Source: a virus
Taxonomy: Duplodnaviria > Caudoviricetes
IMG/VR virus record: IMGVR_UViG_3300010885_031309
Reading direction: 5' to 3' (one strand)
DNA length: 64,000 bases
Part shown: in pieces, positions 27,525 through 48,370 of the stretch
How positions within the stretch are numbered: position 1 is the stretch's first letter
How the letters are laid out: the number at the start of each line of letters is the position of its first letter
The notes under the pieces: generated by a model
Database searches by the model: none
Told to the model about the DNA's origin: nothing
Seen by the model: only the letters and a program-made list of their open reading frames with translations
Position numbers and translations under genes: made by a program

Positions 27525-27548
27525 ATATGAAATTTATTGTCAAATATT

Positions 27549-29154: not shown

Positions 29155-29232
29155 TATTCTTAATGCCGTTCAAAATACTGTCGGATCCAATCAAGCCGAG
29201 ATTGCTCATCCATAGCAGTATACTGTTCAATA

Positions 29233-29565: not shown

Positions 29566-29689
29566 TTATATACTTTCAGTTGTTTCGGTATAAATAAGTA
29601 TAGCATAAAACAAAGTTTATGTCAACAAAAATGTCCTTCGCGGTTCTCCCAAACCCAAGGACTCTAACAGTTTGTAAGGAACTATCAGC

Positions 29690-31258: not shown

Positions 31259-31260
31259 TC

Positions 31261-31671: not shown

Positions 31672-31735
31672 GATTGCTTTCTGTTTTCTACTGTAGATAC
31701 AGTATAACAGTAAACCGATTTACTGTCAAATCGGT

Positions 31736-32290
31736 TTACATACTCTCGCCATCCCCGTGCGTTTTGATTTCTCCTCGCAGAGCATCAGCAATCATGTCAT
31801 CCATCAGTGATACTACACGACCAGTGGCATCCATGCCAGCATCACGCACACGATACCGCTCAAGTCCAGTGGGCTTACCATGAACATGACCATGAAAATG
31901 AACTGCACCACGATGACACTGATTCCATTCATGGATAGGATAGTGCAGCATCACTACTTTGACACCAGCACAGTTTACCTCATGGTAGTTGTGAATCTCT
32001 TCAAATCTGTTGCGAAATCCAGGATCCTTGCACAGTTTCGCATCATGGTTTCCAGCAATCAGAATTTTTTTGCCGTTAAGTTGATCCAGCACACCTCTTG
32101 CTTTTTCTGCACTCATAAAGGCAAAATCTCCAAGATGATACACCAGATCGTTCTCTGCGACTGAACTGTTCCATGTCACGATCATGGACGCATTCATGTG
32201 TTCAACGTCCCGATACTGGCGTGTCTCGGGATTAAACTTGAGGATGTTAGCGTGTCCCCAGTGAGTATCTGAAGTAATCCAAGTTTTCAT
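31736..32290 (-). CDS. Metallophosphoesterase
   Basis: SDTHWGH, HLGD, GNHD, HYP, HGHVH. Confidence 0.9.
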   Translation of the reverse strand: MKTWITSDTHWGHANILKFNPETRQYRDVEHMNASMIVTWNSSVAENDLVYHLGDFAFMSAEKARGVLDQLNGKKILIAGNHDAKLCKDPGFRNRFEEIHNYHEVNCAGVKVVMLHYPIHEWNQCHRGAVHFHGHVHGKPTGLERYRVRDAGMDATGRVVSLMDDMIADALRGEIKTHGDGESM

Positions 32291-32343
32291 CTATATTCCT
32301 TTACAATCTTTTTATTGTAGACGAAAACCAATTTACTGTCAAA

Positions 32344-33006
32344 TCAGTCTTCGTCTGACAGGTCTAATACTTTCCAGCCTAATTTCAGAAGATCGGCACG
32401 AATTTCATCAGTAACCCTGCCTTCGTCAACATATTTCTGTATATTATCGTAGTGAATTTTTTCTTCTGCGGTTAACTCACTGATATCACGAGTCAAATCT
32501 GCACCTCCGCGAAGTCCGCTACAATACCAATCAATATAGTCACCACGTTCTTGCATATCAGCGATTACGCCACCTGCATGTCGCCAACTACAACTCCAAA
32601 CTGGTATTCCATCTGACAATACTTGTACCACACTTTCTGGAGTGTTTACTAGATTAACTTTCTGAAATTCATTGTTACACATAGCAGCATATAAATTCTG
32701 TGCATATGCATCACTGGATCTTACCTTCTCTAGAATCCAATCAGTGCTACACAAATCATATTCCATGTTGTTTTTCTTCCAGTCATCATTCTCTTCGTTA
32801 CTACGATGTCTTTCATCTATTAGATTGAAATAATCAAGCATAGCTGCTACATTACTACTATTTTCTGCGGTTTTTCCCTGCTCAGCCATATTCGCTAGAT
32901 ATCTTTCTTTTTGAAAAGTATTACGATGTGGGCTGCGGCTTAATTTAGTTAGCATACCAAATTTCCTTAAATCCTTCGGTTTCTGATGGAATTTCATAAT
33001 TATCAA
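32344..33006 (-). CDS. Conserved hypothetical protein
   Basis: YAQNLYAAMCNN...WSCSWR..GG...DWYCSG motif. Confidence 0.7.
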   Translation of the reverse strand: MIIMKFHQKPKDLRKFGMLTKLSRSPHRNTFQKERYLANMAEQGKTAENSSNVAAMLDYFNLIDERHRSNEENDDWKKNNMEYDLCSTDWILEKVRSSDAYAQNLYAAMCNNEFQKVNLVNTPESVVQVLSDGIPVWSCSWRHAGGVIADMQERGDYIDWYCSGLRGGADLTRDISELTAEEKIHYDNIQKYVDEGRVTDEIRADLLKLGWKVLDLSDED

Positions 33007-33415
33007 TCATTGATGATACAGCACTCCATGGAATATTTTTTCCAATTCTATTGGCCAATCGCTGCTTCAATTCGCTAGTAGACGGAGTTTTGAATGTAAC
33101 GGCAATATGATAGTAATCTGGCAACATCTTAAATTTCTTTTTGCGACTGTTGACAGTTGTTGAGGTTTGATCCCAAATAACATCCAGTTCACGCTCACGA
33201 GCGTTGACTACATCTTGTGTCATTAGCTTGACGGCAGTGGGCATATATTCATCAAATACTTCACTGTATGTTTTTCCTACCGCAGCAGCATATTTTTCAA
33301 CATGAGCATCAGTAGATACTATCACACAATCATTTAGCCAAGTTTGTGTTGCAATCCAGGTGGACTTACCACTACCCGGGACTCCGACTAATTGATAACA
33401 TGTTGGCATTACCAA
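32945..33415 (-). CDS. Polynucleotide kinase-like P-loop protein (AAA_33)
   Basis: GVPGSGKST, VSTD, WDQT. Confidence 0.85.
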   Translation of the reverse strand: MVMPTCYQLVGVPGSGKSTWIATQTWLNDCVIVSTDAHVEKYAAAVGKTYSEVFDEYMPTAVKLMTQDVVNARERELDVIWDQTSTTVNSRKKKFKMLPDYYHIAVTFKTPSTSELKQRLANRIGKNIPWSAVSSMIDNYEIPSETEGFKEIWYAN

Positions 33416-33600
33416 TTCTCCACACTTGATACCACGATCTCAAAAGTTCCCTCTATGTCATTGACGACTGTTTGTACTTTCATTGTAACTTCTGCACCAA
33501 TGCCGCTGATGTTATCAGAGTATAACTCAAATACTTGAGCATTTGGAAACTTTTCAATTAATTCACCAATTTTTTTGATGTCATCACGATGTAGAAACAT
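33409..33600 (-). CDS. Hypothetical protein
   Basis: 63 aa, coupled to neighbours. Confidence 0.6.
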   Translation of the reverse strand: MFLHRDDIKKIGELIEKFPNAQVFELYSDNISGIGAEVTMKVQTVVNDIEGTFEIVVSSVENW

Positions 33601-34072
33601 TGTTCTTGCTCCTTAAGTAATTGCGATATTCTTCTTGCCATCTATGCTCCGCCGGCGGCTCATATGGCAAACTCAATTCTTCCATCATTAGTCGCATAAC
33701 ACGAGTATTAGGACTGCGAAAGCCCTCTACCAACATAAATCCCATCTGTTCACCGACAGTAGCTACCGCGCCACTACGACTAACCCCCGCATAGCAGTGT
33801 ACTACTACATTAATATTTTTGTCAAGTGCATGACGCAATAATCTAACCAATTCTTTGGCCTGTTCTGTGCTAATAAACATTTCTGGATCATCAGCCTCGT
33901 CACCATCCTCAATATCCAAGAATTCGAAATGGTGTGTTTCCTTGAATTCATGTTTTGGTTCTGGACGCCAACTAGCGGGATCTGTTATTTGGATCAGCAT
34001 AGAGTTTGGTCCAGCATCGTGATGGAATCTTAGCGGTATATCAGCCGCTGCTACATTTTCAATCCAGGGCAT
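33584..34072 (-). CDS. Cys-dependent (CX5R) phosphatase
   Basis: HCYAGVSRS. Confidence 0.85.
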   Translation of the reverse strand: MPWIENVAAADIPLRFHHDAGPNSMLIQITDPASWRPEPKHEFKETHHFEFLDIEDGDEADDPEMFISTEQAKELVRLLRHALDKNINVVVHCYAGVSRSGAVATVGEQMGFMLVEGFRSPNTRVMRLMMEELSLPYEPPAEHRWQEEYRNYLRSKNNVSTS

Positions 34073-34371
34073 TTTTATTTCCTATTGTTAATCTCTTACT
34101 TACTACTGTATTTCCAGTCTACTACCTGCCAGTATCCTTCAGAATATTCTTCAATCTGACCCATGGCATTTATTCTAATATCCCCGTGAACATCAGTTGT
34201 TCTATTCAATAATACTACACTATGTTCTACTGTGTCAAGTTTGCTATCTTCCATATTTTTATTCTCCATCATAACTATTTACTGCACTATTCAAGCACAC
34301 AATATTATTGTGTACTTAAGTACATACAACGATATCTAATACAATCTTAAATAATCAAAAGGATATAAAAC

Positions 34372-34865
34372 ATGAGCAAAGATCGTGAATTATTACAACG
34401 ATATCTTCAAATTATAAATGAAGCTACTACTGTTATTGCAGAAAAATGGGGAGTTAGTGGTGCTGTTAATCCCAGTGAGCGCGGAAAGTATGCTGGAAAA
34501 ACAAAACAAGAATTATTGCGAGCATACAATGCACTTAAAAGAAGCGGCCCACATTCAAAAGATAGTAAAGAATACGGAAGAATGCGCGAACTGGCATTTG
34601 CTATCCGTGCAAAAAGTAGTTGGGGTAAAGTTGCGGAAGAAGATTATCGCAATGAATAACCATGAGTTGCTGCGAATATATAACTCTTACAGAATTAGGA
34701 GTAGGATCAATATTCGTCAAATACAGTGATATCATTAGCATAGAGCTTACTGGTCCATGTGCTAGTCGCATAACACTTAGCAATGGTTACACAAAAATCG
34801 TAGCAGAAGAACCATGTGAGATTGTTCGTATCATCACACGAACTAAAAAATTATGCGAAAATTGA
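34372..34865 (+). CDS. Two plus-strand hypotheticals (34372-34659, 34662-34865)
   Basis: RBS-preceded, adjacent. Confidence 0.55.
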
Positions 34866-34869
34866 TAGT

Positions 34870-34943
34870 TGGTGCCCCAACCTGGTTACGATCCAGGGTC
34901 TCCGCATTACCAATACGGTGTACTACCATTGTACTATAAGGGC
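34870..34943 (-). tRNA. tRNA-Thr(GGT)
   Basis: CCGTA-TTGGTAA-TGCGG; CCA. Confidence 0.9.
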
Positions 34944-34953
34944 GAAAATTGTT

Positions 34954-35150
34954 TGGCTACTCTCACCACAAGAGCCCCAAACTGAGTGGTTACCCTGTCC
35001 ACAAGAGCTTATCTAGGTCTGCCCTTGAACTCCCAGCAATGTTACGAGTCGCCCATGTAACGCGGGCCTCAGCAGCAGATTGCTTCGCCGACATCTTTAT
35101 GGCATGATGTGTTTGCCCACTTTTGTTAACGCTCAAAGTGTAACGCGGGG
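34954..35150 (-). ncRNA. Unassigned structured RNA ending in GCCA
   Basis: GC-rich spacer between two tRNAs; GCTGCT/AGTAGC stem; duplicated CCCGCGTTACA. Confidence 0.45.
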
Positions 35151-35152
35151 AT

Positions 35153-35227
35153 TGGAGCGGGTAGTCGGGGTCGAACCGACGACATTTTCCTTGGCAAGGA
35201 AACATTCTACCACTGAATTATACCCGC
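35153..35227 (-). tRNA. tRNA-Gly(GCC)
   Basis: TTTCC-TTGCCAA-GGAAA; T73; CCA. Confidence 0.92.
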
Positions 35228-35271
35228 AGTATTACTATTATTTACTATTTTCGTTCACTATGCAAATATTT

Positions 35272-35363
35272 TGGTGGACAGAGTGGGATTCGAACCCACG
35301 GACCTCTTTCGAAGCCGACAGTTTTCAAGACTGTTCCAATAAGCCGGACTCTGGCACCTGTCC
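35272..35363 (-). tRNA. tRNA-Ser(TGA) (A73)
   Basis: ACAGT-CTTGAAA-ACTGT; long variable arm. Confidence 0.88.
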
Positions 35364-35371
35364 TATAAATA

Positions 35372-35446
35372 TGGTGGACCCGGGGAGGATCGAACTCCCA
35401 CTAAAGGCTTGCAAAGCCCCTGTGCTCCCATTATCACTACGAGCCC
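35372..35446 (-). tRNA. tRNA-Ala(TGC)
   Basis: G3:U70; loop TTTGCAA. Confidence 0.9.
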
Positions 35447-35503
35447 ACGTTGTTCGTTAACACACTACTTATCACATTGTACACCGTGTGTCATGGTGAA
35501 GTT

Positions 35504-35545
35504 TGGCGTCCCGTTACGGAGTCGAACCGCAAATATGCCGAAACT
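35504..35545 (-). pseudogene. 3' half of a tRNA-Glu-like gene
   Basis: T arm TGCGG-TTCGACT-CCGTA, ACGGGAC-G-CCA; no 5' half found. Confidence 0.6.
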
Positions 35546-35616
35546 CTATCGTAATGATAAATAAACATGAACCATAAGATTGTTTACTTGGAACTAAACA
35601 ATCAACCACACGAGGA

Positions 35617-36528
35617 GTGATGGCTGTCTGGTTCGCAAGTATTTATAACGAGGAGATTCACATGAATTATAAATCACCACTGTGCTCATGTATAGCATGT
35701 CACGAAATAAAGTCCGCTAAAGGAATAAATTGTCATTTTTTGACTATGCACACTGATGCAGAAACTAAAAAACGTCTGGTAGGACGAGAGAATAAAAAAT
35801 CTCCAAACATGTCCAAACAGAAAGAAAAATGTGAACAAGACAGATTAGTATCATTTGAGAGATATCTGATATCTCCTAATCAATGTAAGTGTTGTAATGC
35901 GATATTATCGTATGATAAAAGAAAACAGAAATTTTGTGGACGTTCTTGTTCCGCATCTTATAACAATTCTAATCGTGATGAAACGATTAAAAATAAAACG
36001 ATAGCGACTTTGAAAAATACTATCGCCACAAAATCTCAAATTAAAAATCAATTTGGAGTTTTTAATAGACGCACATCGTTTACTCCAGATGGTCCATACA
36101 CTAAAATTTACTTATGTATATGTAAATATTCTGGGCAGAAATTTTATTCTGCAACTGTAAAAACCGTTCATCCAAATTTGACTATCTCTAAAGAAAGATA
36201 CAATTATGCCTGCAAATTTACATTTGGAATATCAAATTACACAGAATGGTTCTCTACTGCAAGCGAACTGATAAGAAAACACGGATGGTATTCCACTCCT
36301 GGTTCACGCAAAGGAACAACAAATTTAAATGGAATCAGCAGAGATCATCTTTATTCGGTGCATGATGGCTGGATAAATTCTGTTCCACCGCACATATTAC
36401 GTCATCCTGCAAATTGCAATTTAGTCACTCATAAAGAGAATCAATCAAAGAACAGAAAATCTAAAATAACTCTATATGAACTTTATGAGCGTATAGAAAG
36501 ATTTAACAGAATTTATGGCGAGAGGTGA
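35617..36528 (+). mobile_element. HNH-type endonuclease with zinc-finger repeats, antisense to tRNA operon (start probably MNYKS)
   Basis: RDHLYS...HPANC.LV.H.EN.SK; GATAAATA upstream. Confidence 0.75.
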
Positions 36529-36600
36529 GGGACTCGAACCCCCGTGGGTATTAACCGATGGTTTTGGAAACCATTGCAATCGCCGCTATGCGAACCTCTC
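36516..36600 (-). tRNA. tRNA with CCA (Trp) anticodon on a class II, long-variable-arm body
   Basis: ATGGT-TTCCAAA-ACCAT; variable GGT-TAAT-ACC hairpin; G73. Confidence 0.8.
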
Positions 36601-36751
36601 ACTACGAATTCATATGGTTGATTATCACACTGTTTGTCCTAAAATACACAGAATGTCATGATGATGTTTATCATGATTCTAGTGAAAAAAACTTTCACCA
36701 AAGAGCATGAAAGACCGACATAATGCCATTATACCAGAGAGACAATAATAT

Positions 36752-36841
36752 TGGCGGAGAGTGTGGGAGTCGAACCCACTCAGCGGCTTCTAACCACCGT
36801 CGGATTAGCAATCCGATGCCTTACCATCCGGCCCACTCTCC
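36752..36841 (-). tRNA. tRNA-Ser(GCT)
   Basis: TCGGA-TTGCTAA-TCCGA; long variable arm; G73. Confidence 0.92.
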
Positions 36842-36860
36842 TAAATCTTAACTATATCGT

Positions 36861-36937
36861 TGGTGCCCTAGGAGAGACTCGAACCCCCAGAATTTACGTT
36901 CTAAGCGTAACACGTATACCAATTCCGTCACGTGAGC
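36861..36937 (-). tRNA. tRNA-Leu(TAG), short variable loop, two acceptor-stem mismatches
   Basis: TTACG-CTTAGAA-CGTAA; GCTCACG vs CTAGGGC. Confidence 0.75.
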
Positions 36938-36954
36938 TTGATTTCTATTTATCT

Positions 36955-37030
36955 TGGTGCTGCCTCGTGGGATCGAACCACGTTCCAAGGCTCTTCAGGC
37001 CTCCGCTATGACCACATCAGCTAAAGCAGC
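36955..37030 (-). tRNA. tRNA-Phe(GAA)
   Basis: GAGGC-CTGAAGA-GCCTT. Confidence 0.92.
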
Positions 37031-37037
37031 ATTAACT

Positions 37038-37111
37038 TGGTACCGAGTACTGGTTACGCTCCAGTGATTCACGATTATCAGTCGTGTATTTTACTATTAA
37101 ATTAACCCGGC
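37038..37111 (-). tRNA. tRNA-Ile(GAT)
   Basis: CACGA-CTGATAA-TCGTG. Confidence 0.9.
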
Positions 37112-37846
37112 AATGAATTCTTTTGATAAATTTTTTTCTAAGATAACAATTACTTTAACCTGATTCTGTTCTTGTGCTAGACGAATTTTTTCTGCATCCA
37201 ACTTTGCTTTGTAGTTGTTCTTAGGATCAAGATAAATCCCATGATCCACAAGATAGAAATCTGCAAAATAATTACGTCCATTGTATTTTAATGCCTTAGG
37301 ACGAATCCAACGAACATTCATTTCGGTGAGAATTTCAAAACATTTATATTCATAGGAACTTTGTAAAGTCGTTGAATTTCCAAATGAGTCAATAACTTTA
37401 TATTTTTTGCTTCTACCAGCATTTTCTCTATAACCGCCAAGCCCTCGTTCTTTGGCTTGCTTAGAACGTCTCTCACGTTCTGCACTAGTTATTTCTTTGG
37501 CTATTATTCTACCAGATTCATATCCATTTTTTAATTTTTCAGCACTTCTGCGAATGATGTGATTAGTTTCTTTTGTCTGACCTTTGTTCCAAGAAGTATG
37601 TCCAACGGAATAATTTTTGTAAACTCTGTCTTTGTTTTGAGGACAAGTTCTTGTATGCTGAGTGTGACTAATTTTATTTTTGCAAATTTTACCACAATAC
37701 GCGCAGTTTAGACTTATCGGATCTGAAATTTTATTCCAGATAATTTTGCCGCCCTTGATGATACAACGACTGTGGTGTTTAGATAAATTATTTGTCGTGA
37801 ATTCATCTTTACAATTTATACAACAGTATCTTACTTTATTGTTCAT
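37097..37846 (-). mobile_element. Putative PD-(D/E)xK-type homing endonuclease with zinc-finger N-terminus
   Basis: QSSYE...ADFYL...YLDPK; stop lies inside tRNA-Ile; GATAAATA upstream. Confidence 0.65.
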
Positions 37847-37873
37847 GAATATTCTCCTAATCTATTTATCACA

Positions 37874-37909
37874 GATAAAGAGAATGCTCTACCTTTGAGT
37901 TACGCGGGC
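37874..37909 (-). pseudogene. 5' half of a tRNA gene
   Basis: GCCCGCG-TA-ACTC-AAAGGTA-GAGC-A-TTCTC, then breaks off. Confidence 0.55.
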
Positions 37910-37920
37910 AATTATAAAAC

Positions 37921-37974
37921 AGGATGCTTATTTTTCAATTATAAGTTGAATTATAAGTTTGCTGAACGCATCCT
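37921..37974 (-). ncRNA. CAGC-bulge hairpin element E5 inside tRNA array
   Basis: AGGATGC-GTTCAGCAAA...GCATCCT. Confidence 0.7.
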
Positions 37975-37980
37975 AAAACT

Positions 37981-38076
37981 TGGACCGTCGAACAGGATTC
38001 GAACCTGCATCAGTATACAGTGATACCACTCCAAATTACCTTTGTTCTCGTTCGTAGCGAGAGAGGATACCGACGG
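37981..38076 (-). ncRNA. D-armless tRNA-like RNA with ACG anticodon-like loop
   Basis: 7-bp acceptor, canonical T arm, T73-CCA, TCTCG-CTACGAA-CGAGA, ~37 nt variable region. Confidence 0.7.
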
Positions 38077-38087
38077 ATTGTTATTAC

Positions 38088-38163
38088 TGGGCAGACGCTA
38101 CGGATACGAACCGTTCCCTACTCTTTCACGGAGAGTAATGCTTCCAACTACACCAAACGCTGC
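38088..38163 (-). tRNA. tRNA-His(GTG), imperfect (C33, bulged acceptor)
   Basis: ACTCT-CCGTGAA-AGAGT; G-1:C73. Confidence 0.78.
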
Positions 38164-38175
38164 ACTGAATTTTTT

Positions 38176-38250
38176 GGCGGTCTTAGGGGGTAACGATCCC
38201 CACTCTTACGGCGTGACAAGCCGTCGTGCGTCCATGAACACTTTAAGACC
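38176..38250 (-). tRNA. tRNA-Asp(GTC)
   Basis: ACGGC-TTGTCAC-GCCGT; G73. Confidence 0.92.
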
Positions 38251-38256
38251 TAAATT

Positions 38257-38535
38257 TGGTAGGACCAGCGAGGTTCGAACTCGCGACCAACGGATTAACT
38301 TACCACTATAGTTTTCACCACCAGATCGCTCTGTTTGTGGTCTGGACTATACCTTCATCATAGCATTTCTGCCTTAGATGCCCGCCGTCTAGTCTCTACA
38401 CGTTCCCATTACTGGGCTTCGCTCGGTATCGCCATTTTACAGGGTTCACCGAATTTGACGGGTTCTACTTACAAAATTTCTTTTGTAGCACTCCTATTTT
38501 AAAGTCCGCTGCTCTACCGGCTGAGCTATAGTCCC
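38257..38535 (-). tRNA. tRNA-Lys(TTT) with group I intron (38299-38501) at position 34/35
   Basis: GCGGA-CTT|TT-AA-TCCGT; P1 ACUU/GAGU; AAATTCGGTGAA, GTAGAGACTA, TAGTCC; terminal G. Confidence 0.9.
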
Positions 38536-38592
38536 TCTATCAAACAACAGAACACAGTGTAGCACTGTGTGTATTATTTGTCAAATATTTTG

Positions 38593-38677
38593 TGGTCGGA
38601 GTGGCAGGATTCGAACCTGCGATGCTTTCGCGCTAGCTCCCAAAGCTAGTGACTTGACCAGGCTAGCCTACACTCCG
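38593..38677 (-). tRNA. tRNA-Pro(TGG) with extra variable hairpin
   Basis: CTAGC-TTTGGGA-GCTAG; variable CGCGAAAGCATC. Confidence 0.88.
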
Positions 38678-38684
38678 AGTTGTT

Positions 38685-38760
38685 TGGTAGGAGATGACGA
38701 GTTCGAACCAACATCGTCCTCCTTGTAAGGGAGGTGCATAACCTCTCTGCTCAACTACCC
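38685..38760 (-). tRNA. tRNA-Val(TAC), degenerate or chimeric
   Basis: CCTCC-CTTACAA-GGAGG; mismatches in acceptor and T stems. Confidence 0.65.
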
Positions 38761-39278
38761 TTATATTCTCTTAAATAAGAATTTCTCTTAGTTACTTTTT
38801 TGTATCTACTACCTTTTCCCTTACTGCCAAAGTTTTCTGTTTGACTGTGACAGTTAGGACATAACAGTCTTAAATTATTGATATTGTTGTTATCACTATC
38901 TCCGTCAATATGATCTAATTGTAGCACAAGAGATTTATTATTCCAAGTATCTCCTTGCTCGCATTCAAAACATTTCTTATCAAATTTTTCAATAAGATAT
39001 TTCTTTAATGTATAAGAGGAATTACTCGTGCATTTATTAGATTCAATTCGTGGAATAGTTTCATTAATCCATTTGTACTTACCTTGACAAACGTTGTCAC
39101 AAAATTTGTTAATTTTGCTACGACCACTTAAATTCTCTTTACCGCAATGTAAACACGAATAGAATTTTGAATCTTTTTTTCTATCTATAAAAAAGCCTGT
39201 TTTGCGACTATGTGATCCAACATGACCACCATATTTTTGTCCAGAATCAAATGTTGCTCCGCAATGACAAATATACAT
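38751..39278 (-). mobile_element. HNH endonuclease
   Basis: LQLDHIDGDSDNN..NLRLLCPNCHSQT; stop inside tRNA-Val 5' end. Confidence 0.9.
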
Positions 39279-39303
39279 AATGATTCAAGTTTCCTATAAA
39301 TTT

Positions 39304-39377
39304 TGGAGCGGGATAGGAGAATCGAACTCCTGACTTTAGCTTGGAAGGCTAAGGTAATGCCATTTTACGAATCCCGC
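39304..39377 (-). tRNA. tRNA-Gly(TCC)
   Basis: TTAGC-CTTCCAA-GCTAA; T73. Confidence 0.92.
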
Positions 39378-39388
39378 GTATCTAATTC

Positions 39389-39477
39389 TGGTTGCGGAAC
39401 CTGGATTCGAACCAGGACAATGCATTAGATGTCTCAGGGTTATGAGCCCTGCGCTTTACCAATTAAACTATTCCGCT
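39389..39477 (-). tRNA. Initiator-type tRNA-fMet(CAT) with 18-nt variable region
   Basis: 1:72 mismatch, GGG/CCC anticodon stem, CTCATAA loop. Confidence 0.85.
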
Positions 39478-39620
39478 ATAATTATTTATACTGGCACATT
39501 GCTATGACAGATTTTTTGTATACCTGGCCCCCACTGTTCACGCCGATATACATGGCACCCGCTTTATTTGACGGTACGAGGGCCCCCTATAACCGTACAG
39601 TCATTTAAGACTGTTTTGTG

Positions 39621-39980
39621 CTAGAGTAGCAGACTCTTTCGTCCACTCTCTAGAGCACACTTCATTGCAATTCCCAGCGCTGCGGCACATGGAAACCTAT
39701 TGCCACGTTTGAACTTGAAGCCATTTAGCGTAAACGGCTTAAGAACCTCATCGCCATTCCACCATCCACGTTGGACATAAATATACCCGTCACGTTCAAG
39801 AGACTCACGTAACTTGGTGAATTCTGGATGATCTATAGTACTGATCGCATAACTAGTATTTTCGTAGACTAGCGCATCTACTAATTCATCTGGCGTTAGT
39901 GTTTCTTTATTAGCAAAACGACTAAGACTAGTCTTTTGTGTAACACTAGTTAAATATTCTGATTCAATTGTAAAATTCAT
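39621..39980 (-). CDS. Hypothetical protein
   Basis: 119 aa with RBS. Confidence 0.6.
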   Translation of the reverse strand: MNFTIESEYLTSVTQKTSLSRFANKETLTPDELVDALVYENTSYAISTIDHPEFTKLRESLERDGYIYVQRGWWNGDEVLKPFTLNGFKFKRGNRFPCAAALGIAMKCALESGRKSLLL

Positions 39981-40222
39981 TACGATCTCCTAACATTTCT
40001 ATATACACCTGCTGACATACGATCTCCTTAATAAGAGGAGATTAGATTTTTTACAGCCGACGATTACCCTACACGGCATCATGAATAGTGTAGGCTTTAC
40101 CTGGCATATTTATAAGATAATTGCCAGCATCTAACGAAGGGTGTCTTACCACCCCAAACTAATATATAGTATAAGTATATTATTAATAAGACATATATCA
40201 GCATGTGTATATAGAAAACGAC

Positions 40223-40300
40223 TGGAGCACAGGGCCGGATTCGAACCGGCGGTTTTACGGTTTTGCAAACCGTTGCATTGGGCCTCTCTGCCACCTGTGC
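40223..40300 (-). tRNA. tRNA-Cys(GCA)
   Basis: ACGGT-TTGCAAA-ACCGT; T73. Confidence 0.92.
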
Positions 40301-40303
40301 GTT

Positions 40304-40380
40304 TGGTGGTGACGGGCAGGTTCGAACTGCCTTCATTCAGCCTTATGAGGGCTGCGTATTTCCACTAATACTACATCACC
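40304..40380 (-). tRNA. tRNA-Met(CAT), elongator-type (or Ile2)
   Basis: CAGCC-CTCATAA-GGCTG. Confidence 0.85.
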
Positions 40381-40396
40381 AAATATAAATAACAAC

Positions 40397-40675
40397 GTGA
40401 GTAAAGAACGTATACCACTCAACTTACGCAGACGTGTCATTGAACGTGACGGTCTACGGTGTGTCTATTGCGATGACGACTTAACTGGTGCGGAAGTACA
40501 CCTTGATCATGTAGTGCCTGAAAGCTGTGGTGGTCCAACAACATACGACAACTTACAAGTTACCTGCCGTAAATGCAATCTTGCAAAAGGCGTACTTACT
40601 GAAGGTGAGTTCACGGCTAAATTACGTCAACGTGCAATAAACATACTGGCTAGACTAGGTCCTGGTTCAATATAA
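40397..40675 (+). CDS. Minimal HNH endonuclease
   Basis: C..C...HLDHVVPES.GG.T..DNLQVTC..CN..K; TATAAATA at 40384-40391. Confidence 0.85.
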   Translation: MSKERIPLNLRRRVIERDGLRCVYCDDDLTGAEVHLDHVVPESCGGPTTYDNLQVTCRKCNLAKGVLTEGEFTAKLRQRAINILARLGPGSI

Positions 40676-41018
40676 CAGACAAGCGACCACTTCATACAGT
40701 CCAGTCGGACATTTTCTAATTTTGATGGAGGCACTGAGTTACGAGTCAGACTATGCCCCTAGTTATCGTAATCGCTAGGTAATTTCAAGTCAGACAGAAG
40801 TGTGTTCTTTATAGACGCACAACATTTCCTTTTGCATATGGCGCTGTATTTTCTCCAAGAAGATTGACCTATCGTTCTTCTCTTTACACTGCGACAGCTT
40901 TGAACTGAGAGATCGCAGTAACTTGGAATACAGCATAACTTGGCGTACATGGAGATCATTTCAATCGTCTTTCGCTCTCGCAAGAGTACCCTCAATCTTC
41001 GGGCTCATGTACATATCT

Positions 41019-41106
41019 TGGTGGGGACTGAAGGAATCGAACCTAATTGCCGCCACTCTGCATATTATGGCAAGTGATTTACAGTCACCCGCAGAGAACA
41101 GCCCCC
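41019..41106 (-). ncRNA. D-armless tRNA-Tyr(GTA)-like RNA
   Basis: 8-bp acceptor, GGTGA-CTGTAAA-TCACT, TTCGATT loop, A73-CCA; CTCTGC complementary to GCAGAG in variable region. Confidence 0.7.
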
Positions 41107-41114
41107 AAAATTCT

Positions 41115-42220
41115 TTACCATATTTCAACACACTGATGGGCTTCTTTTAAGTCGAACTAACCCCGCACCCTAGTGATTTATTCCTCCCTGGTCAGAGGTT
41201 GTTTTCAATGTGTTGAAATATGGTTTCCTACTTTGCGCGACCGTTCGGAACAATTCAAGACGCACCCACTAAGCACAGTGTCCTTGATTCTCAGACCTGG
41301 GACTCGAACCCAGCACACTATCTTAGTTAGTAAGAGTGCAATCTTATTAACTTACGGTGTGAACCTATCTCTGATATTGCTTTTACCATATTTCAACACA
41401 CTCGTTGCATCAGTCGATAAGAGCAGTCGATACAAAAAATGTGTTGAAAAAAAACTCTATGCTAATTGTATAAAGAACTGTGTTGATTTCTCAACATTGA
41501 TGACAGTATATCAGTGTCCTGATTTATTGTCAAGAAACTGTCGGGTAGCTTAATGTGTGATTTCCACTACCCTGTTACTCTGTATCAGTCTAGGCTAATC
41601 ATTGCTGAAAATTCCTAGCATCAACCTGCGTCACACTGTGTTCAGACAGTTATAACTATAACAGGACCGTGATTTATTGTCAACAACTTTCAGTGATTAG
41701 ATCGAAATGCACTCGCATCTGCTTTTTGAGCCGCGTGTTCTCCGCCCTTGATTCCTAGACTAGTACTAGGGGCGTGTGCCCATTTACACTAGCACTTCGA
41801 TCTAATCACTGAATTTTAAAGAACTACGCTGATTTCTCAACGTTAGAGACAGTATATCAAACTTCTGATTTACTGTCAAGTTTCTGTAGTGATCTTGATT
41901 CAACACATGATACTATCTAGATGATTCAGTAGCTGTATCGGCCGATTATCTACTATCTGTCACCCTACGCTCCCTTGGTCCTTTGGGAATGGCTTACCCT
42001 GTGCTGAATCAAGATCACTACAGATTGTTAAAGAACAGCAGTTTACGCTACTGCCAAACGAAGACCTGTGGGTTCTCAGGCTACCCCACACTAGACGTTA
42101 TACTGACAACTGGGATTGTGCTTCCCGAAACATTCTGTAGCGGCGGTGGGAGTTTGTTGTCCCTCGTTTATGCCGACTACACTCAGACCCTGTTTGTTGT
42201 CAGTTCTCTAGCGTATGAAT
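41115..42220 (-). ncRNA. Cluster of long-stem-closed structured RNAs (about 41116-41224, 41221-41380, 41385-41449, 41545-41650, 41689-41813, 41890-42019, 42090-42211)
   Basis: Perfect 8-18 bp closing stems, no credible ORFs, four dedicated promoters. Confidence 0.65.
41590..41618 (-). ncRNA. Minimal CAGC-bulge element E6
   Basis: CTAGG-AATTTTCAGCAATGATTAG-CCTAG. Confidence 0.45.
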
Positions 42221-42247
42221 ACATTATAGACGAGGCTTGATTTATTG

Positions 42248-45200
42248 TCAAATTACGGCAAGACCAAAATGTTGCTTCAGTCCATTAACTGAGGCATTAC
42301 GCATGCCTTTCTCGATTTGGTCACGATAATCACCGTAGCCAAGAGGCGTACTATCAACAACCTCCATGCATTCCCTAACAATCAACTCGGCGAACTTATC
42401 CAATGCTGCTTGACTGATAATAAAGCCTTCCAAATCAGGATGCTTTGGGTCCCAGTATTTGTGCCTATTACATCCAGCCTCAAACGCAAATTCATCAATT
42501 CGTTCGTTCATTCTCATGCTCCTTTATTGCTCTTGTACCTTACGCAGAGTGGCGATCAGTTGGGGCAGCAGATTGATGCCAACGGAGCAGACAAATTCGC
42601 TTTCTGCTTCACCGGGTTCACCAACCCATACCTCTACCAAGTTGCTGCCGATTTGACGAGTTTGAAACGGATTGATTGTGACTTTCATCGTGTGCTCCTT
42701 GCTGTCTACTATGAATACAGTATAGCAAAGATCCGATTTATTGTCAAATGGTCTTTTCCAACCACAGACTACAGAATAGAACGGCAGTGACCAGCAGTGC
42801 TCGCATTTCCCCGTAGTTCTTGTCACTCCTTGCGAATCCTGCCAGACACATTGTTGCTACGAATCCAGCGAAATAAAAATATTCCATCATTCAACTCCTA
42901 GATAATCTTCAATATACTGTTTGACAGAAATAGCACCCGACGCTTCTTTTTCTAGACCATATGTAAGATACCCCACTTGAGCAACCTCACACATTCTCAT
43001 ACATTCCTGAACAATAAGTTCGGCGAACTTTTCCAAATCATAAGGTATTACTGTAGCAGTATCAACGCCATAGTTGTCAGAAGAAACATCAAATTCGATG
43101 TCAGCCTGCTTGGCCAGTTCCCGAATTCGTTCGTTCATCATTCAACCTCAAAACTGTCCAGGATCTGTCTACCGATACCTACTCGGCCCTCGTGTTCCAT
43201 AATACCAGCAACAAGGGCACATTCCCGAACAATCAGTTCGGCAAGTTTATTGGCCCTGCTAGCAATTTCAGGAGCAGCATACCCTGCTTCCTGCATTAAT
43301 TGATTTAATCGTTCGTTCATTTTACAAATCTTCCCCAAATAAACTTTAGACTCAAACCGTCGATCAGGCTCTGTTTGTAAGGTGTTGTAGGTGCCCAAAT
43401 AATATATCCCAAAATAATACCGTCAATCCAAGCAAGAATTAGCAGTAAGGTAATTTCTAATTCAGCCATCATTCAACTCCCGTTCTTCTTACGTTGTTGG
43501 ATATAGTATTCATTCATTCGCTTTTTCCATTCTTCGGGCGTTGGATCACGAAAGGAACCTTGTGGCTTACTTGAACCACGCCCGCTTTTGAAACTGTAAT
43601 ACGCTGTTCTAAAACTCACGATTCAACTCCGAAATGTTGTTCAAATCTTGTTCGCCATTCATTCAACCATGAAATATATTCGGTTGGCCTTTCACTTGGC
43701 TCAAAACAATGATAGCAATCATCCTCGGTTTGCTCCATCATACCGCACATTTCTTTGATAATCAACTCGGCGAACCGTTCGGCACTACGATCACCACCCC
43801 AATATACGGTAGGAGGATTGCCACCACGCATAGGATCATCTTCCGGATATTCTCGCACCATGTGAGCCTGCTGGTATAGTTCTTTTAGACGTTCGTTCAT
43901 TTTTTATTCCCGTTGACAATTTCATTAATTTTTTCAACAAAGTCTGGGTTTCGTTGAATGATTTCATCAATTACATCATCAAGTTCTGCTAGACTTCTTT
44001 TACCTACAGGATTACGTAGGTGATGGATCATTTCCTCCACTGTAAATTCTGGAGCAGATTCTTCATACTTGCTCATTTGTTACTCACTCCATACTTCTTC
44101 TTCAGTCGGTTGATCTCGGCCTTGAGATTACGATTTTCGTAGTCTGCCCAACCAGCGCGATCTTGCATTTCCTTCATCTGCTTTGCGAAGTCTCTATCAC
44201 TCGGTGTTAGGTCTTCTTCTGGCGTGATAATAAACTTACCACTGTCCCAGTCAAAGCCCATCTGGATATTTTTTATCTTAACAGTGGGCAATCCACCAAC
44301 AGTAGAGTACGGCAGTTTGATCTTAACCACCACCTCTGGGTCTTCGTGGTGGCCATCACGGTGAGATAGTTCAACAATACGTTTTAGTTCACTGAATTTC
44401 ATCATTCAACTCCTGTTTAACAATGCCTGTAGAGCATAAACGGCATCGTGTGTAGTAAAGAGTATAACATCATTTTCAATTACTGTATATAGATTAGGTT
44501 GATACTGATGTTGTGAATCATTAAGATCGTTTACCGTCTTTTCAACTTTTAGAACTACCGTTTCAGTTTTCACGAATCAACTCCAAATAATATGATAAAA
44601 CATTGGGCCAAACATTGCCGCAATGATAATAACAAACACAACTGCTGATCTCCAATGCCACGGCATCATTCAACTCCAAACTTTCTTCGAATGGCAGAAG
44701 CAAGAATAATTGCCGTTTCACTAGTACCATCGGGCATCGCATACAAGTCACACAATGCCGCACATTCCTGAACAATCAAATCACCAAACTCGCGCCAATC
44801 AAAGTCACCAATGTACTCACGATCACTAGCATGTTCCTTTTTCAATCCAGCTTGTTTGGCTAGTTCTAGCATTCGTGTGTTCATTTTTTAAACCTTGGAA
44901 TACCGCCTGCTGTGCCTACATATTGAAAGTTGTCTAGCACAGGAACAAGCCCGGCTAGATCACTGGTAGAATGACGGCAAATCTGTTTTGAGTCTGCACC
45001 ATCATGTAACATAAAATACAAGATGGTAGTACCTTCATCAATCTGTGGCTTAAAAATGTATTCCAAATCTTCTAGTATCATTTATCAACTCCAAAAATCT
45101 TATTAATCAGTGTAGCACAGTTAACCGCGGTAGCCTTGGTTTTTCTGGCCATTTCTCCGTTATTGACTAGTTCAGCTTGTTCAGCAACCGAGTAGCAAAT

Positions 45201-45756
45201 ACCAGAACACTGCTTTACGATCAATTCAACGAAATTAGTCAAATCAATGCCGCCGGCGTTGTTTCCTATCGCGTCATGATACATACCGTGGCTGTCACGC
45301 AACATGCCGGCACGATTTGCCAACCGTTCAATTAGTTCTTTATTCATACCAGCAAACCTCCGCGGCGCTGATCACTAACAAGATGCTCTTCTAGGCTACG
45401 GTTTACACACAGCCCGCCGTCATATGTCATTGGTTGACCAAGCCAACTCCACCACTCTAAATGAGATGGTGTGAATTTAGTTCCGGTCACGTTCCATGCT
45501 TTTTTGAAGCCCTCGGCAATTCCTTCTCTATGGGGCATCATTCGACTCCGAAATGTTCCTCAATCAATGAGATAGCATACAAATATGCTTCTGGGTCTTT
45601 AGTAAAGGGATGATGCTGTTCTAACCTAGTGACACATTCTTTCACAATCAACTCGGCGAACTTTTCTTCCCACATTGCATCAAAATCATCTTGATTTGGT
45701 TGCCTGACACACCAAATAGTGGCTTGCCGTCCAAGTTCACGAATTCGTTCTTTCAT
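42248..45756 (-). CDS. Cassette array with 7 MNERI...FAELIV...FGVE paralogues (42248-42517, 42887-43141, 43138-43398, 43616-43900, 44666-44884, 45078-45347, 45538-45756) and unrelated small ORFs (42524-42826, 44073-44405, 44881-45081, 45344-45541)
   Basis: Shared protein motifs and repeated GGAGTTGA(A)TG junctions. Confidence 0.75.
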
Positions 45757-45783
45757 AATACACCCTACACAAAATACTGTATA

Positions 45784-46005
45784 TTACACACACTTTGTTG
45801 TATTGTAGTCAACTACACACCCTGCAGGGATACAACGAGTGTGATTTCTGAATTGTATCAACAGCATGTTGTTTTTGGCTTCACCAAGTACCATGCCACT
45901 ACGACCGATATACTTGCGAACATAACGATGCATTCGGCCACTCTTACTCATGATGCTAACTACCCACACACGTTTGTTTTTCCAAAGTGCCTCTTGATAT
46001 GTCAT
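45784..46005 (-). CDS. Small basic hypothetical protein
   Basis: 73 aa ORF. Confidence 0.5.
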   Translation of the reverse strand: MTYQEALWKNKRVWVVSIMSKSGRMHRYVRKYIGRSGMVLGEAKNNMLLIQFRNHTRCIPAGCVVDYNTTKCV

Positions 46006-46029
46006 GGTATGTTGCCCGTTGATGATGTT

Positions 46030-46105
46030 TGGCGCGACTGGAGCGATTCGAACGCCCGACAGACCGGGTAGAAGCCGGTTATTCTATCCACTGAATTACA
46101 GTCGC
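46030..46105 (-). tRNA. tRNA-Arg(TCT)
   Basis: ACCGG-CTTCTAC-CCGGT. Confidence 0.92.
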
Positions 46106-46154
46106 AATATTGTTAGTATAAGTTAAGCTGAATTATTTGTCAAGAGAAATTTTT

Positions 46155-46424
46155 TGGCTCCCTGTCGTGGGGTCGAACCACGGACCAACAGATTCCGGTT
46201 TGTGTGACTTTCGCCACTCCCTGGACTTTATCTTGACCATAGCATTTCTGCCTTAGGTCCCTGCCGTCAAGTCTCTACACGTTCCCGTTTCTGGGCTTCG
46301 CTCGGTATTGCCATATGCTTTCGCACTTAGGTTTCACCGAATTTGACAGGATTTTCAACTACTGTTTCCAATAGAAGTGTCCATTTCTAAACAGTCTGCT
46401 GCTCTACCTCTGAGCTAACAGGGA
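46155..46424 (-). tRNA. tRNA-Asn(GTT) with Azoarcus-type group IC3 intron (46195-46389) at position 36/37
   Basis: GCAGA-CTGTT|AA-TCTGT; intron ends GTCCAGGGAGTGGCGAAAGTCACACAAACCGG, matching the Azoarcus tRNA-Ile intron 3' end as I recall it. Confidence 0.92.
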
Positions 46425-46433
46425 ATTGATTTT

Positions 46434-47033
46434 TTAATAACTTTTTCCTTCAAGATATCGTTTCATTCTTAAATGTCTACCGTTTCCTTTGTTTTTTCCT
46501 TTATAAGTCGGCGTTTGACTATGACAATTAGGACAAAGCAAAGACAAATTACTAATTTCGTTGTTCGTGCTGTTTCCGTCTATATGCTCTAGTTCCATAA
46601 CTAGTTCTTTGCCGTTCCACTCCGTTATACCACAATTCCAGCATTTATTTCCGTATTTGTCTAAAAGAAATTTCTTCATCGTCTTTGAAGACGCAATCTT
46701 TTCTTCTATTTTTTGAAGAGACTGATAATCTTGCTGACACTTGATACTACAATATTTGTTCTTGTTTGCTCTATAATACAGAGTCGTCGTATTACAGAAT
46801 ATACAGTTAAAGAAACTTTTCTTTTTATCCTTGGCTAAATTATTAAATGTAGCAGAGCAGGAACTATTACAAAACGCTTTCTTTCTTTTGAAGTCATCAT
46901 AAGACAGTGAAGTATTACAATGTTTACACAATTTTGGAGATTTGTTATATGCTATCTCATTGGCTTCTTTTATTTTAGCCCATGTTTTAGCAGACTCAAC
47001 CGCTCCTAATTTTCCTGCTTCCGATCTATTCAT
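46434..47033 (-). mobile_element. HNH endonuclease
   Basis: MELEHIDGNSTNN..NLSLLCPNCHSQT; paralogous to 38751-39278. Confidence 0.9.
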
Positions 47034-47045
47034 AATTTTATCAAA

Positions 47046-47119
47046 TGGTTCCCCGTGACGGTTACGCTCCGCCGACTAATGCTTACAAGGCAATCGTTAT
47101 GCTATTTAACTAACGGGGA
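47046..47119 (-). tRNA. tRNA-Thr(TGT)
   Basis: ATTGC-CTTGTAA-GCATT; CCA. Confidence 0.85.
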
Positions 47120-47194
47120 ATAATTTTGGCTATATCTTTCAAATAACTAATCTATTTAGACACAGTGTAACACTACAAAATTTTTTTGTCAAAT

Positions 47195-47272
47195 TTATTT
47201 GAACCAAAATGCATATGTAGTGCACAATATGTTCCATGCATTTACTAAAATAGTATCATCTTTCATTTTCAT
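47195..47272 (-). CDS. 25-aa peptide MKMKDDTILVNAWNILCTTYAFWFK
   Basis: AGGAG RBS directly upstream; follows a structured RNA. Confidence 0.45.
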   Translation of the reverse strand: MKMKDDTILVNAWNILCTTYAFWFK

Positions 47273-47281
47273 CTCCTGTTT

Positions 47282-47460
47282 TCACACTCTGTTTGAATGT
47301 GCATAGTAAAGAACACCACCGGATGCACTTTACTATATGTGAGACACCATACTAGTGTCTCACAATAGATTTCCCTTTATCGCACTCAGTCAGCCTAAAG
47401 AGTACTCGGCTGCTTCTTAGCGGTCCGGCGCTATTTCTATACCGCGATTTCCTGACGCGG
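47282..47460 (-). ncRNA. Multi-hairpin structured RNA downstream of attenuator
   Basis: CCGCG/CGCGG, AGCC/GGCT, GTGAGACAC/GTGTCTCAC, ATAGTAAAG/CTTTACTAT and CACATT/AGTGTG helices. Confidence 0.65.
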
Positions 47461-47480
47461 TTTTATTCTGTTACAAAAAC

Positions 47481-47512
47481 AAAAAAACCCTAGAATTTTT
47501 GGTTCTAGGGTT
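47481..47512 (-). terminator. Intrinsic terminator of attenuator
   Basis: AACCCTAGAA/TTCTAGGGTT 10-bp stem, then TTTTTGTTTTT. Confidence 0.88.
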
Positions 47513-47554
47513 CAAGTATTTGTAGTATTCTACTTTAGTTCTATACTTGAACCC
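47508..47554 (-). promoter_or_regulatory. Antiterminator hairpin
   Basis: 12-bp perfect GGGTTCAAGTAT/ATACTTGAACCC; 3' arm overlaps terminator 5' arm by AACCC. Confidence 0.8.
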
Positions 47555-47648
47555 CGATTAGACCATCATTATAGGCACGGCTAAAGCAGGGCATAGACCA
47601 TGTGGTCTGCTCTGATTTCACTGCGATAATGGAATGCTTGTGATTCAT
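47541..47648 (-). CDS. Leader peptide MNHKHSIIAVKSEQTTWSMPCFSRAYNDGLIGVQV (35 aa)
   Basis: Hand-translated; last codons form the antiterminator 5' arm; TTGACA-N17-TATATT promoter at about 47659-47687. Confidence 0.75.
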   Translation of the reverse strand: MNHKHSIIAVKSEQTTWSMPCFSRAYNDGLIGVQV

Positions 47649-47773
47649 AATAGTTACAAATATATTATATTTATCAGATCGTGTCAAAACAATTGGATAA
47701 CTGCGTTTTTTTGATTGTCTTATATTTTTGAGTTGTTTTCTGACAAATATATATTTTATTTATTCAATAATAA

Positions 47774-48370
47774 TTATTGCTGTGTGTTATTGCGTTTTTT
47801 TGCATAAAAAATATGATTTCCAACAGTCATTACTTTTTCATATTTCCAATTTGGATTTACTGTTGTGTTATGAAAGAACAGCACATTATTTGGCACTACA
47901 TCATTCCATGCGTTTTCAGTCAGCACTTTTCGTGCTATATCTTCAGCCTGACGATATGCTAGATTTCTTTCTGGAGTTTGTTTGCCCTCGCACACCCAAT
48001 TAAATTGACAGACTGTTTTATATTGTTCACTGTCTAGCTCAACTTGATTTTTTGCATAAATTACAGCACATGGATTTTTTGCGAAACCATGTTTGATACG
48101 GTTCATTACTACTCTTGCTACCATAACCTGTCCCATGAAGGGTTCGTTGCCTGCTTCGTGGTATATATTTGTGGCCATGCATCTTAGATATTCTTTATTA
48201 ATTGATGCATATGATTTAGCTTGAAATCTTTTTGACTCAATGATTGAGTATATTGCATCATTATAATCCAGTTGTTGCCGATACAGCATGCCAGAATAAA
48301 AAGAAGAGAGCATAATCACCGTGATTAAAAAAAATAAAAAATAAAGTCTACTCTTGCCAGATGTCGGCAT
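47774..48370 (-). CDS. SleB-like cell wall hydrolase (Hydrolase_2) with N-terminal TM
   Basis: CMATNIYHEA..E...GQ..VA.VVMNR...CQF.W...FFH...GNHIFY. Confidence 0.9.
   Translation of the reverse strand: MPTSGKSRLYFLFFLITVIMLSSFYSGMLYRQQLDYNDAIYSIIESKRFQAKSYASINKEYLRCMATNIYHEAGNEPFMGQVMVARVVMNRIKHGFAKNPCAVIYAKNQVELDSEQYKTVCQFNWVCEGKQTPERNLAYRQAEDIARKVLTENAWNDVVPNNVLFFHNTTVNPNWKYEKVMTVGNHIFYAKKRNNTQQ

Follow-up and report, generated by a model that had tools for sequence, protein, structure and literature searches.

A phage leader reading frame with near-complete amino-acid diversity as a candidate sensor of translation

What is a short reading frame that uses all 20 amino acids doing just ahead of a transcription terminator, beside a region of phage transfer RNA (tRNA) genes? 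The question is raised by a 64,000-nt stretch of viral DNA (the window; Duplodnaviria, Caudoviricetes, IMG/VR record IMGVR_UViG_3300010885_031309), in which a promoter is followed by a 35-codon open reading frame (ORF), hereafter the leader, and by two overlapping hairpins. Leader-peptide attenuation is known as a means of sensing one amino acid or a few, ahead of the matching biosynthetic or synthetase genes, as in the classical attenuators of amino-acid operons (trpL, hisL, leuL, thrL, pheL and ilvL). An initial annotation, made from the sequence letters alone, had proposed that this leader samples nearly the whole tRNA pool. Here, we describe the leader together with its homologues, across which a high amino-acid diversity has been kept through deep divergence, beyond a tree-aware neutral expectation. 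We think it probable, if by no means certain, that the leader is a ribosome-mediated transcription attenuator acting as a generalist sensor of elongation and tRNA supply.

The leader locus and its homologues

All leader elements lie on the minus strand of the window, and their coordinates are window positions:

47659-47687, minus strand: sigma70-type promoter (TTGACA at 47687-47682, 17-nt spacer, TATATT at 47664-47659)
47541-47648, minus strand: leader ORF, 35 sense codons plus TAG (47543-47541), with the ATG at 47648-47646
47587-47614, minus strand: mid-ORF hairpin around the Trp codon (H1), found in 13 of 14 homologues
47543-47554, minus strand: 5′ arm of the antiterminator, 12 nt, made up of the last sense codons and the T of TAG
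47508-47519, minus strand: 3′ arm of the antiterminator, in perfect 12-bp pairing with 47554-47543
47474-47513, minus strand: intrinsic terminator, with an 11-pair stem (47513-47503 / 47495-47485), a 7-nt loop and a T-run to about 47474
47774-48370, minus strand: CwlJ/SleB-type endolysin gene adjoining the leader

The promoter is near-consensus, matching at 11 of 12 positions, and contains GATAAATA. It is overlapped by a TGATAAATA motif (47676-47668), which is kept in most homologues and occurs five times in the window, against 1.7 expected; the TATAAATA motif shows no enrichment in the window. The ATG follows the -10 hexamer by only 10 nt and is not preceded by a Shine-Dalgarno (SD) sequence, and the mRNA should therefore be leaderless, or nearly so. 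At the other end of the locus, the six bases GAACCC are both the last bases of the antiterminator 3′ arm and the first bases of the terminator 5′ arm. The promoter, the SD-less ORF, the hairpin that holds the stop codon and the overlapping terminator had all been named in the initial annotation, and each is present at these minus-strand coordinates. Its account of the leader was accurate in all details checked, including the composition of the peptide (all 20 amino acids, with 32 distinct codons over 35) and the sets of His, Lys, Gln, Ser and Val codons.

Taken alone, this composition is not significant. The probability of finding all 20 amino acids in a 35-residue peptide is about 2e-3 with the amino-acid composition of the window and about 1e-2 with uniform usage, and the window contains 174 ATG-initiated ORFs of 30–40 codons, so that about 0.5 all-20 ORFs are expected among these small ORFs and exactly one is present. 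Significance can come only through homologues.

Homologues were sought in IMG/VR, JGI, ENA and Logan contigs by two routes. One followed the contigs of sampled relatives of the endolysin, of which there are hundreds in metagenomes, and is unbiased as to the leader; the other consisted of DNA pattern scans. The window comes from an uncultured freshwater phage, and the leader belongs to a freshwater giant-phage lineage. About 17 distinct leader homologues were recovered, all from uncultured phages:

L002:4719-4890; L011:3235-3407; L022:3157-3331; L007:1-138 (cut by the contig end)
L003:4707-4887; L015:3206-3392; L034:3204-3381; L014:3230-3408; L013:1845-2024
L024:5403-5583; L030:9608-9785 (variants in L038-L041); L029:7610-7789; L019:4072-4229
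L027:6502-6681 (near-copies in L028, L031 and L032); L046, minus strand, about 3255-3500

Compared with the endolysin gene beside it, the leader shows the higher DNA-level conservation in seven of eight cases. More distant relatives of the endolysin, at 44–50% identity (L037 and L042-L044), have no leader beside the gene. DNA and protein searches of INPHARED found no relative of the leader, of the endolysin region or of a 972-aa virion protein, and a tblastn search of INPHARED with two leader peptides gave chance-level matches only (E of 4–8). A scan of metagenomes with a peptide pattern yielded one true homologue (the truncated L007) and three chance matches (L008-L010). A cyanobacterial candidate from the contig scan (L033) proved to be a chance terminator, and four further pattern matches (L045 and L047-L049) were set aside as not homologous. 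The homologous leaders whose existence the initial annotation had left to be checked are thus found, and both the amino-acid diversity and the overlap of the hairpins are conserved across deeply diverged members.

Comparison of the homologues indicates that the leader ORF is maintained and very probably translated, as had been supposed from the single sequence. Between the ATG and the hairpin arm, 14 homologues contain no in-frame stop, against 33 and 45 stops in the other two frames. Insertions and deletions within clades are multiples of three, and the alignment contains synonymous changes (CGT/CGC, TCT/TCA/TCC, CTA/TTG and GGT/GGG). The leaderless-type start appears to be a conserved and unusual property of the family: in all homologues the ATG lies 5–12 nt past a -10 hexamer or a TATAAATA-like motif, without an SD sequence.

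The stop codon appears to be tied to the RNA and not to the peptide, because its distance from the hairpin arm is fixed although the frame in which the arm is read is not. In 12 of 15 homologues it ends 12–14 nt past the point where the arm begins, while the invariant arm sequence GGGTTCA is read in all three frames across the clades, resulting in different C-terminal residues. The N-terminal half of the peptide is nearly free to vary.

Amino-acid and codon diversity across the family

Sixteen peptides could be aligned, of 30–39 codons each, with one of 49. Eight of these contain 20 distinct residues, seven contain 19 and one contains 18; the leader of L046 (52 codons) likewise contains all 20. 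The residues that are missing differ between peptides: Cys in two cases, Asp in three and Leu in one, with Val missing from the L027/L028 pair and both Cys and Gln from L034. Of the rare residues, Cys, Phe, His and Asp occur at non-homologous positions in different clades. Cys, for instance, precedes the E-Q pair in L003, follows Trp in clade IV, is C-terminal in L046, has also moved in L019 and exchanges positions with Arg in L015, and Phe has shifted to the tail in L024 and L030.

When the seven conserved columns are kept and the rest is redrawn, a peptide contains about 17.1 distinct residues on average, with a probability of 0.011–0.018 of reaching 20 and of 0.1–0.16 of reaching at least 19. 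Shared ancestry was accounted for by a tree-aware neutral simulation (14 tips, 4000 simulations), in which the root was deliberately given all 20 residues and the seven core columns were held fixed. This gives 17.5 +/- 0.45 distinct residues per tip, compared with 19.36 observed; 13 of the 14 tips have at least 19 residues, against 3.1 expected, a value reached in 0 of 4000 simulations. The result holds with a uniform amino-acid background and with the discovery clade excluded, where nine of ten tips have at least 19 residues against 2.4–2.6 expected (P<=2e-4). The diversity is concentrated in the part of the leader where a ribosome could stall without covering the arm (the stall-competent zone), with 17–20 distinct residues in 23–33 codons.

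The explanation that this diversity reflects chance and shared ancestry, with no selection on composition, sits well with the unremarkable probability of the single sequence among the window's 174 small ORFs. We nevertheless regard it as very improbable, since a simulation that starts from an all-20 ancestor never attains the observed values, also without the discovery clade or with the uniform background. At the level of codons, the number of distinct codons given the peptides sums to 429, compared with 403.9 +/- 6.5 expected. This surplus of synonymous-codon variety is suggestive, as the homologues are not independent.

Covarying hairpins and the proposed switch

The antiterminator and the terminator both carry signs of selection for pairing. 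In the antiterminator, pairs 1–7 are invariant and pairs 8–12 covary, with position 8 found as A-T, C-G, G-C, T-A and G-T; pairs were counted from anchored registers, as a MAFFT alignment had the arm out of register. A terminator is present in all homologues, with an RNAalifold consensus of 10 pairs, two of them covarying. Within the shared CCC segment, changes in L007 and L034 are compensated. The competition between the stop-codon hairpin and the overlapping terminator, as originally proposed, thus gains support: both structures covary, with GAACCC common to the two. Searched against Rfam 15 (including T-box elements and riboswitches), the leader and the downstream RNAs gave no match at gathering score or E<=1-10.

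H1 is conserved in the same way. Its inner stem covaries (GACC/GGTC, TAGAC/GTCTA, GAGGTC/GATCTC and ACCA/TGGT), and it coincides with a series of codons, GAGCAG...TGG...ATGCCC, that are fixed at the nucleotide level without synonymous variation, a fixation that we attribute to H1 pairing. Much of the apparent core of the peptide (Q, W, P, R and Y) would consequently reflect conservation of RNA, which argues against both an arrest peptide and a functional micropeptide. H1 is a candidate pause hairpin for RNA polymerase, or may serve to synchronise polymerase and ribosome. In three clades only, the 5′ arm is predicted, with P near 1, to pair with the start region (A)UGAAY. Such pairing could occlude the AUG or act as an anti-antiterminator, and is offered as a lead only.

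Under the attenuator reading, host RNA polymerase would start at the promoter and a ribosome would load on the SD-less, (nearly) leaderless AUG, with H1 possibly holding the polymerase until the ribosome arrives. An unhindered ribosome reaching the stop codon would cover the 5′ arm of the antiterminator, leaving GAACCC free, which would allow the terminator to form and halt transcription after about 175 nt. In line with this step, masking the stop region with a ribosome in the folding predictions gives P = 1.0 for the terminator base pairs in all 12 scorable homologues. A ribosome delayed in roughly codons 2–28 would allow the 5′ arm to pair with the 3′ arm first. The terminator stem would thereby be deprived of its three basal G-C pairs, and the polymerase would continue through a structured RNA and a 25-codon ORF and then into the tRNA region:

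47364-47462, minus strand: structured RNA of type A, the putative first read-through product, near-identical in L003 and L034
47195-47272, minus strand: 25-codon ORF, the putative second read-through product, with a strong AGGAG site and the core N-A-W-N-x-L
47049-47192, minus strand: a separate promoter (47192-47164) and the first tRNA gene, tRNA-Thr(UGU) (47119-47049)

Since almost all amino acids are present in the leader, most of them once and with varied codons, a severe loss of almost any charged tRNA would flip the switch, as would a general slowdown in elongation or initiation. What we infer here are the direction of the switch, the pausing, the sensed input and the physiological trigger; starvation or anticodon nucleases as the trigger are conjecture. 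Such a device would answer to an almost total loss of any one tRNA species, or to a global slowdown, and one may speculate that this makes tRNA-cleaving defences a better match than starvation.

A stronger version of this idea is that the leader has been selected as a 'one of each' test message. With every amino acid, in varied codons, placed in the stall-competent part of a leaderless ORF, it would detect the loss of any single tRNA species and induce a rescue unit, with feedback from the tRNA products shutting the switch again. Host anticodon nucleases, or late-infection starvation, could bring about such a loss. The rescue unit would comprise a structured RNA that comes in three types, each able to take the place of the others, together with a conserved micropeptide and added transcription into the near-complete tRNA set. 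We put this version forward tentatively, and consider it doubtful as it stands.

A number of observations weigh against a generalist attenuator, beginning with the RNA. The overlap between antiterminator and terminator is short, comprising GAACCC only. Without a ribosome, a truncated antiterminator and the full terminator coexist at equilibrium in the window, L011, L015, L024 and L030, where the probability of the terminator base pairs is 0.77–1.0 (0.77 in the window itself). The antiterminator has no clear advantage at equilibrium in about half of the homologues, while folding favours the full antiterminator in the rest; with equilibrium so near balance, any switch must therefore be kinetic. 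The position of the stop codon also has exceptions: it ends 18 nt past the first base of the arm in L034, 46 nt in L013 and, scored separately, 23 nt in L046. In L013, the stop has been lost through changes that perfect an inner hairpin, and the resulting ORF of 49 codons ends at a TAG inside the terminator 5′ arm, an arrangement that would invert the logic of the attenuator in that phage, in a pyrBI-like manner.

The sensing part of the reading has weak points of its own. Gly and Leu are confined to the last seven codons of the window leader, and Phe to the tail in L024 and L030. Residues limited to the tail would escape sensing, because a ribosome stalled there would cover the arm. The original notion that the leader samples nearly the whole tRNA pool, so that the loss of any tRNA would act on it, is hence supported as far as a conserved diversity of 18–20 residues goes, and overstated in that the full set of 20 is not strict and that two residues of the window leader lie beyond the zone that can sense them. 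With one codon per amino acid, sensitivity to mild starvation would be low compared with that of classical leaders. Leaderless initiation may be inefficient, and an untranslated leader would default to the antiterminator. Transcript data leave the matter ambiguous: among the RNA runs scanned, a short related piece was found in one metatranscriptome only, a freshwater sample (run X9), in which a 151-nt contig joins the terminator 3′ arm of a relative to the type A RNA (window 47383-47463) across a broken T-run, which is compatible with terminator read-through and also with DNA carry-over. Finally, the tRNA genes are under promoters of their own, and the support for the reading as a whole is purely comparative.

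Several of these points feed other explanations of the locus. The leader could be a real attenuator that senses only whether translation is coupled to transcription, with the supply of ribosomes, the capacity for leaderless initiation, host shut-off or infection stage as inputs, and with amino-acid diversity as a side effect that plays no role in sensing. The anatomy of the locus and its conservation fit this explanation as well as they fit a generalist sensor. The SD-less, leaderless start is kept in all homologues, and the predicted pairing of the 5′ arm with (A)UGAAY in three clades points to control of initiation; single codons per amino acid are, moreover, poor starvation sensors. What it leaves unexplained is why 19–20 residues are kept over saturated divergence, why rare residues resurface at new positions and why synonymous codons tend to differ, and we therefore consider it a serious though unlikely alternative. 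It is less probable still that the locus is an ordinary micropeptide gene or a small RNA ending in a stem-loop and a terminator, with the first hairpin serving RNA stability or processing. In its favour, about half of the homologues form the terminator at equilibrium whatever the upstream hairpin does, the downstream genes are served by promoters of their own, and the peptide has a conserved core (Q, W, P, R and Y). This core, however, most likely reflects RNA-level conservation, because it coincides with H1 and shows no synonymous variation, and the N-terminal half around it is nearly free. Three different frames are used at the C-terminus over an RNA arm that does not vary, and the shared GAACCC is likewise invariant, with compensated changes in both partners. 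The leader peptide has no match in Pfam, and its sole match in PHROG (phrog_29942, E=0.013, with a tblastn counterpart at E=6) was judged to be due to chance.

The same conserved codons could suggest a nascent-peptide arrest leader of the TnaC, SecM or Erm type, in which W...P...R.Y would stall the ribosome on a specific ligand or factor, as Trp and Pro lie at a constant distance upstream of the stop. This constancy does not extend across the family: spacing to the stop differs by clade, and L019 and L046 lack the motif context. As the Trp and Pro codons are, in addition, fixed at the nucleotide level within the covarying H1, we have largely rejected this reading and give it very little credence.

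The generalist attenuator that we favour shares much with the classical ones: a promoter-proximal short ORF, mutually exclusive hairpins, a ribosome at the stop that would mask the 5′ strand of the antiterminator, and an upstream hairpin (H1) that could pause the polymerase as the 1:2 hairpin does in trp. It differs in belonging to a phage, in its SD-less and (nearly) leaderless start, in having only six bases common to the two hairpins, and in the downstream RNAs and micro-ORF that take the place of biosynthetic enzymes. Enrichment for cognate codons, the defining feature of classical leaders, is not found; instead of a run of regulatory codons, the phage leaders contain 18–20 different amino acids, mostly once each. 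On this reading, the leader would be an attenuator variant that stands outside any amino-acid-specific family.

Closer parallels exist for parts of the design. The E. coli topAI-yjhQ operon is preceded by toiL, a multipurpose upstream ORF (uORF) that responds to many translation stresses via stalls at different positions (PMC12121999). Like the phage leader, toiL is a single short ORF in which ribosome stalls remodel the downstream RNA structure; it differs in acting through a ribosome-binding site and Rho-dependent termination in response to antibiotics (PMC12121999), whereas an intrinsic terminator and a shortage of tRNAs or amino acids are proposed here. In bmrB-bmrCD (PMC4191407) and the msrD leader (PMC10314930), a stall in the leader ORF favours an antiterminator over an intrinsic terminator. 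These stalls require a drug and a particular peptide, while the phage leader peptide is largely free in sequence and conserved in composition. Mycobacterial leaderless polycysteine small ORFs (sORFs) sense amino-acid supply as first cistrons, through ribosome pausing (10.1101/834739); they too are leaderless, and respond to one amino acid by acting on translation of the next gene, where the phage leader would respond to nearly all. A full-text literature search turned up no account of a leader containing all amino acids, nor of phage tRNA regions under leader-peptide control. The claim that no equivalent had been described thus holds, within this search, for an all-amino-acid leader, and has to be narrowed in view of the multipurpose uORF toiL (PMC12121999) and the leaderless sensory sORFs (10.1101/834739).

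If the reading is true, compositional completeness would be a different design principle, in which a single cis element reports on the health of the whole decoding system, here in a virus and beside its own tRNA repertoire. It would also provide a handle on how large phages regulate their tRNA and small-RNA regions and on whether phages sense host defences that target tRNAs.

The downstream unit and the tRNA region

The probable regulated products are three structured RNAs and a conserved micropeptide. Across relatives, the slot just past the terminator is shared by three unrelated structured RNAs of about 100 nt, none of which has a match in Rfam:

Type A: window 47364-47462, minus strand; L003:4900-5005; L034:3393-3492
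Type B: L002:4900-5030; L015:3405-3510
Type C: L022:3380-3480; L019:4240-4345; L027:6685-6780; also in L007, L011, L013, L014, L029, L038 and L046

Type C is the commonest, with three covarying hairpins and conserved loops (e.g. GCACUNUAAACAU and GGCGAUAAC). A further conserved hairpin (ATAGTAAAG...CTTTACTAT) lies between the structured RNA and the micro-ORF. In relatives, the micro-ORF has 23–33 codons and the core N-A-W-N-x-L...Y (L022:3554-3625; L019:4292-4372; L007:~330-400). It has no match in Pfam or PHROG.

How far read-through would matter for the tRNA genes is less clear. The initial annotation had the switch controlling the tRNA array, a claim that we find weak, as the first tRNA gene and many later ones have near-consensus promoters of their own. 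The first tRNA of L002 likewise has its own strong promoter, and the tRNA and small-RNA region of the window (27500-47400, minus strand) contains at least 14 near-consensus sigma70 promoters, mostly TTGACA-17-TATACT and often with an extended -10 TG. Over this interval, the minus strand has no further strong terminator. Gating of the unit formed by the structured RNA and the micro-ORF is therefore better founded than switching of the array. The tRNA genes of the window cover at least 15 amino acids, to which those of relatives contribute Asn, Gln, Glu and Lys. The juxtaposition of an all-amino-acid leader and a nearly full tRNA repertoire agrees with a leader that mirrors the array.

Some further features of this region were noted. 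Three tRNA genes were found by Rfam and not by ARAGORN, with anticodons read from the sequence by eye:

37041-37111, minus strand: tRNA-Ile(GAU)
38688-38759, minus strand: tRNA-Val(UAC)
47049-47119, minus strand: tRNA-Thr(UGU)

Long-arm tRNA-like genes in three relatives (L003:5246-5332, L013:2380-2466 and L015:3659-3745) score 46–47 bits, about the gathering threshold of the selenocysteine tRNA model. Group I introns (RF00028, above the gathering score) occur in the window at 46202-46402 and 38329-38511 (both minus strand) and in L003:6535-6733; those of the window sit in the tRNA region, beside an HNH endonuclease gene (46434-47033).

Two protein-coding genes vary in their presence around the unit. 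Between the structured RNA and the tRNAs of several relatives, a conserved hydrophobic ORF of 37 aa is encoded on the opposite strand; it is absent at the corresponding position of the window. In several relatives, an IMPDH (guaB-like) gene lies between the unit of leader, RNA and micro-ORF and the tRNAs:

37-aa hydrophobic ORF, minus strand: L002:5080-5195; L003:5090-5205; L013:2222-2335; L034:3583-3696
IMPDH gene: L011:3959-5038; L019:4528-; L022:3699-4811; L034:3967-5079; L038:4390-5496

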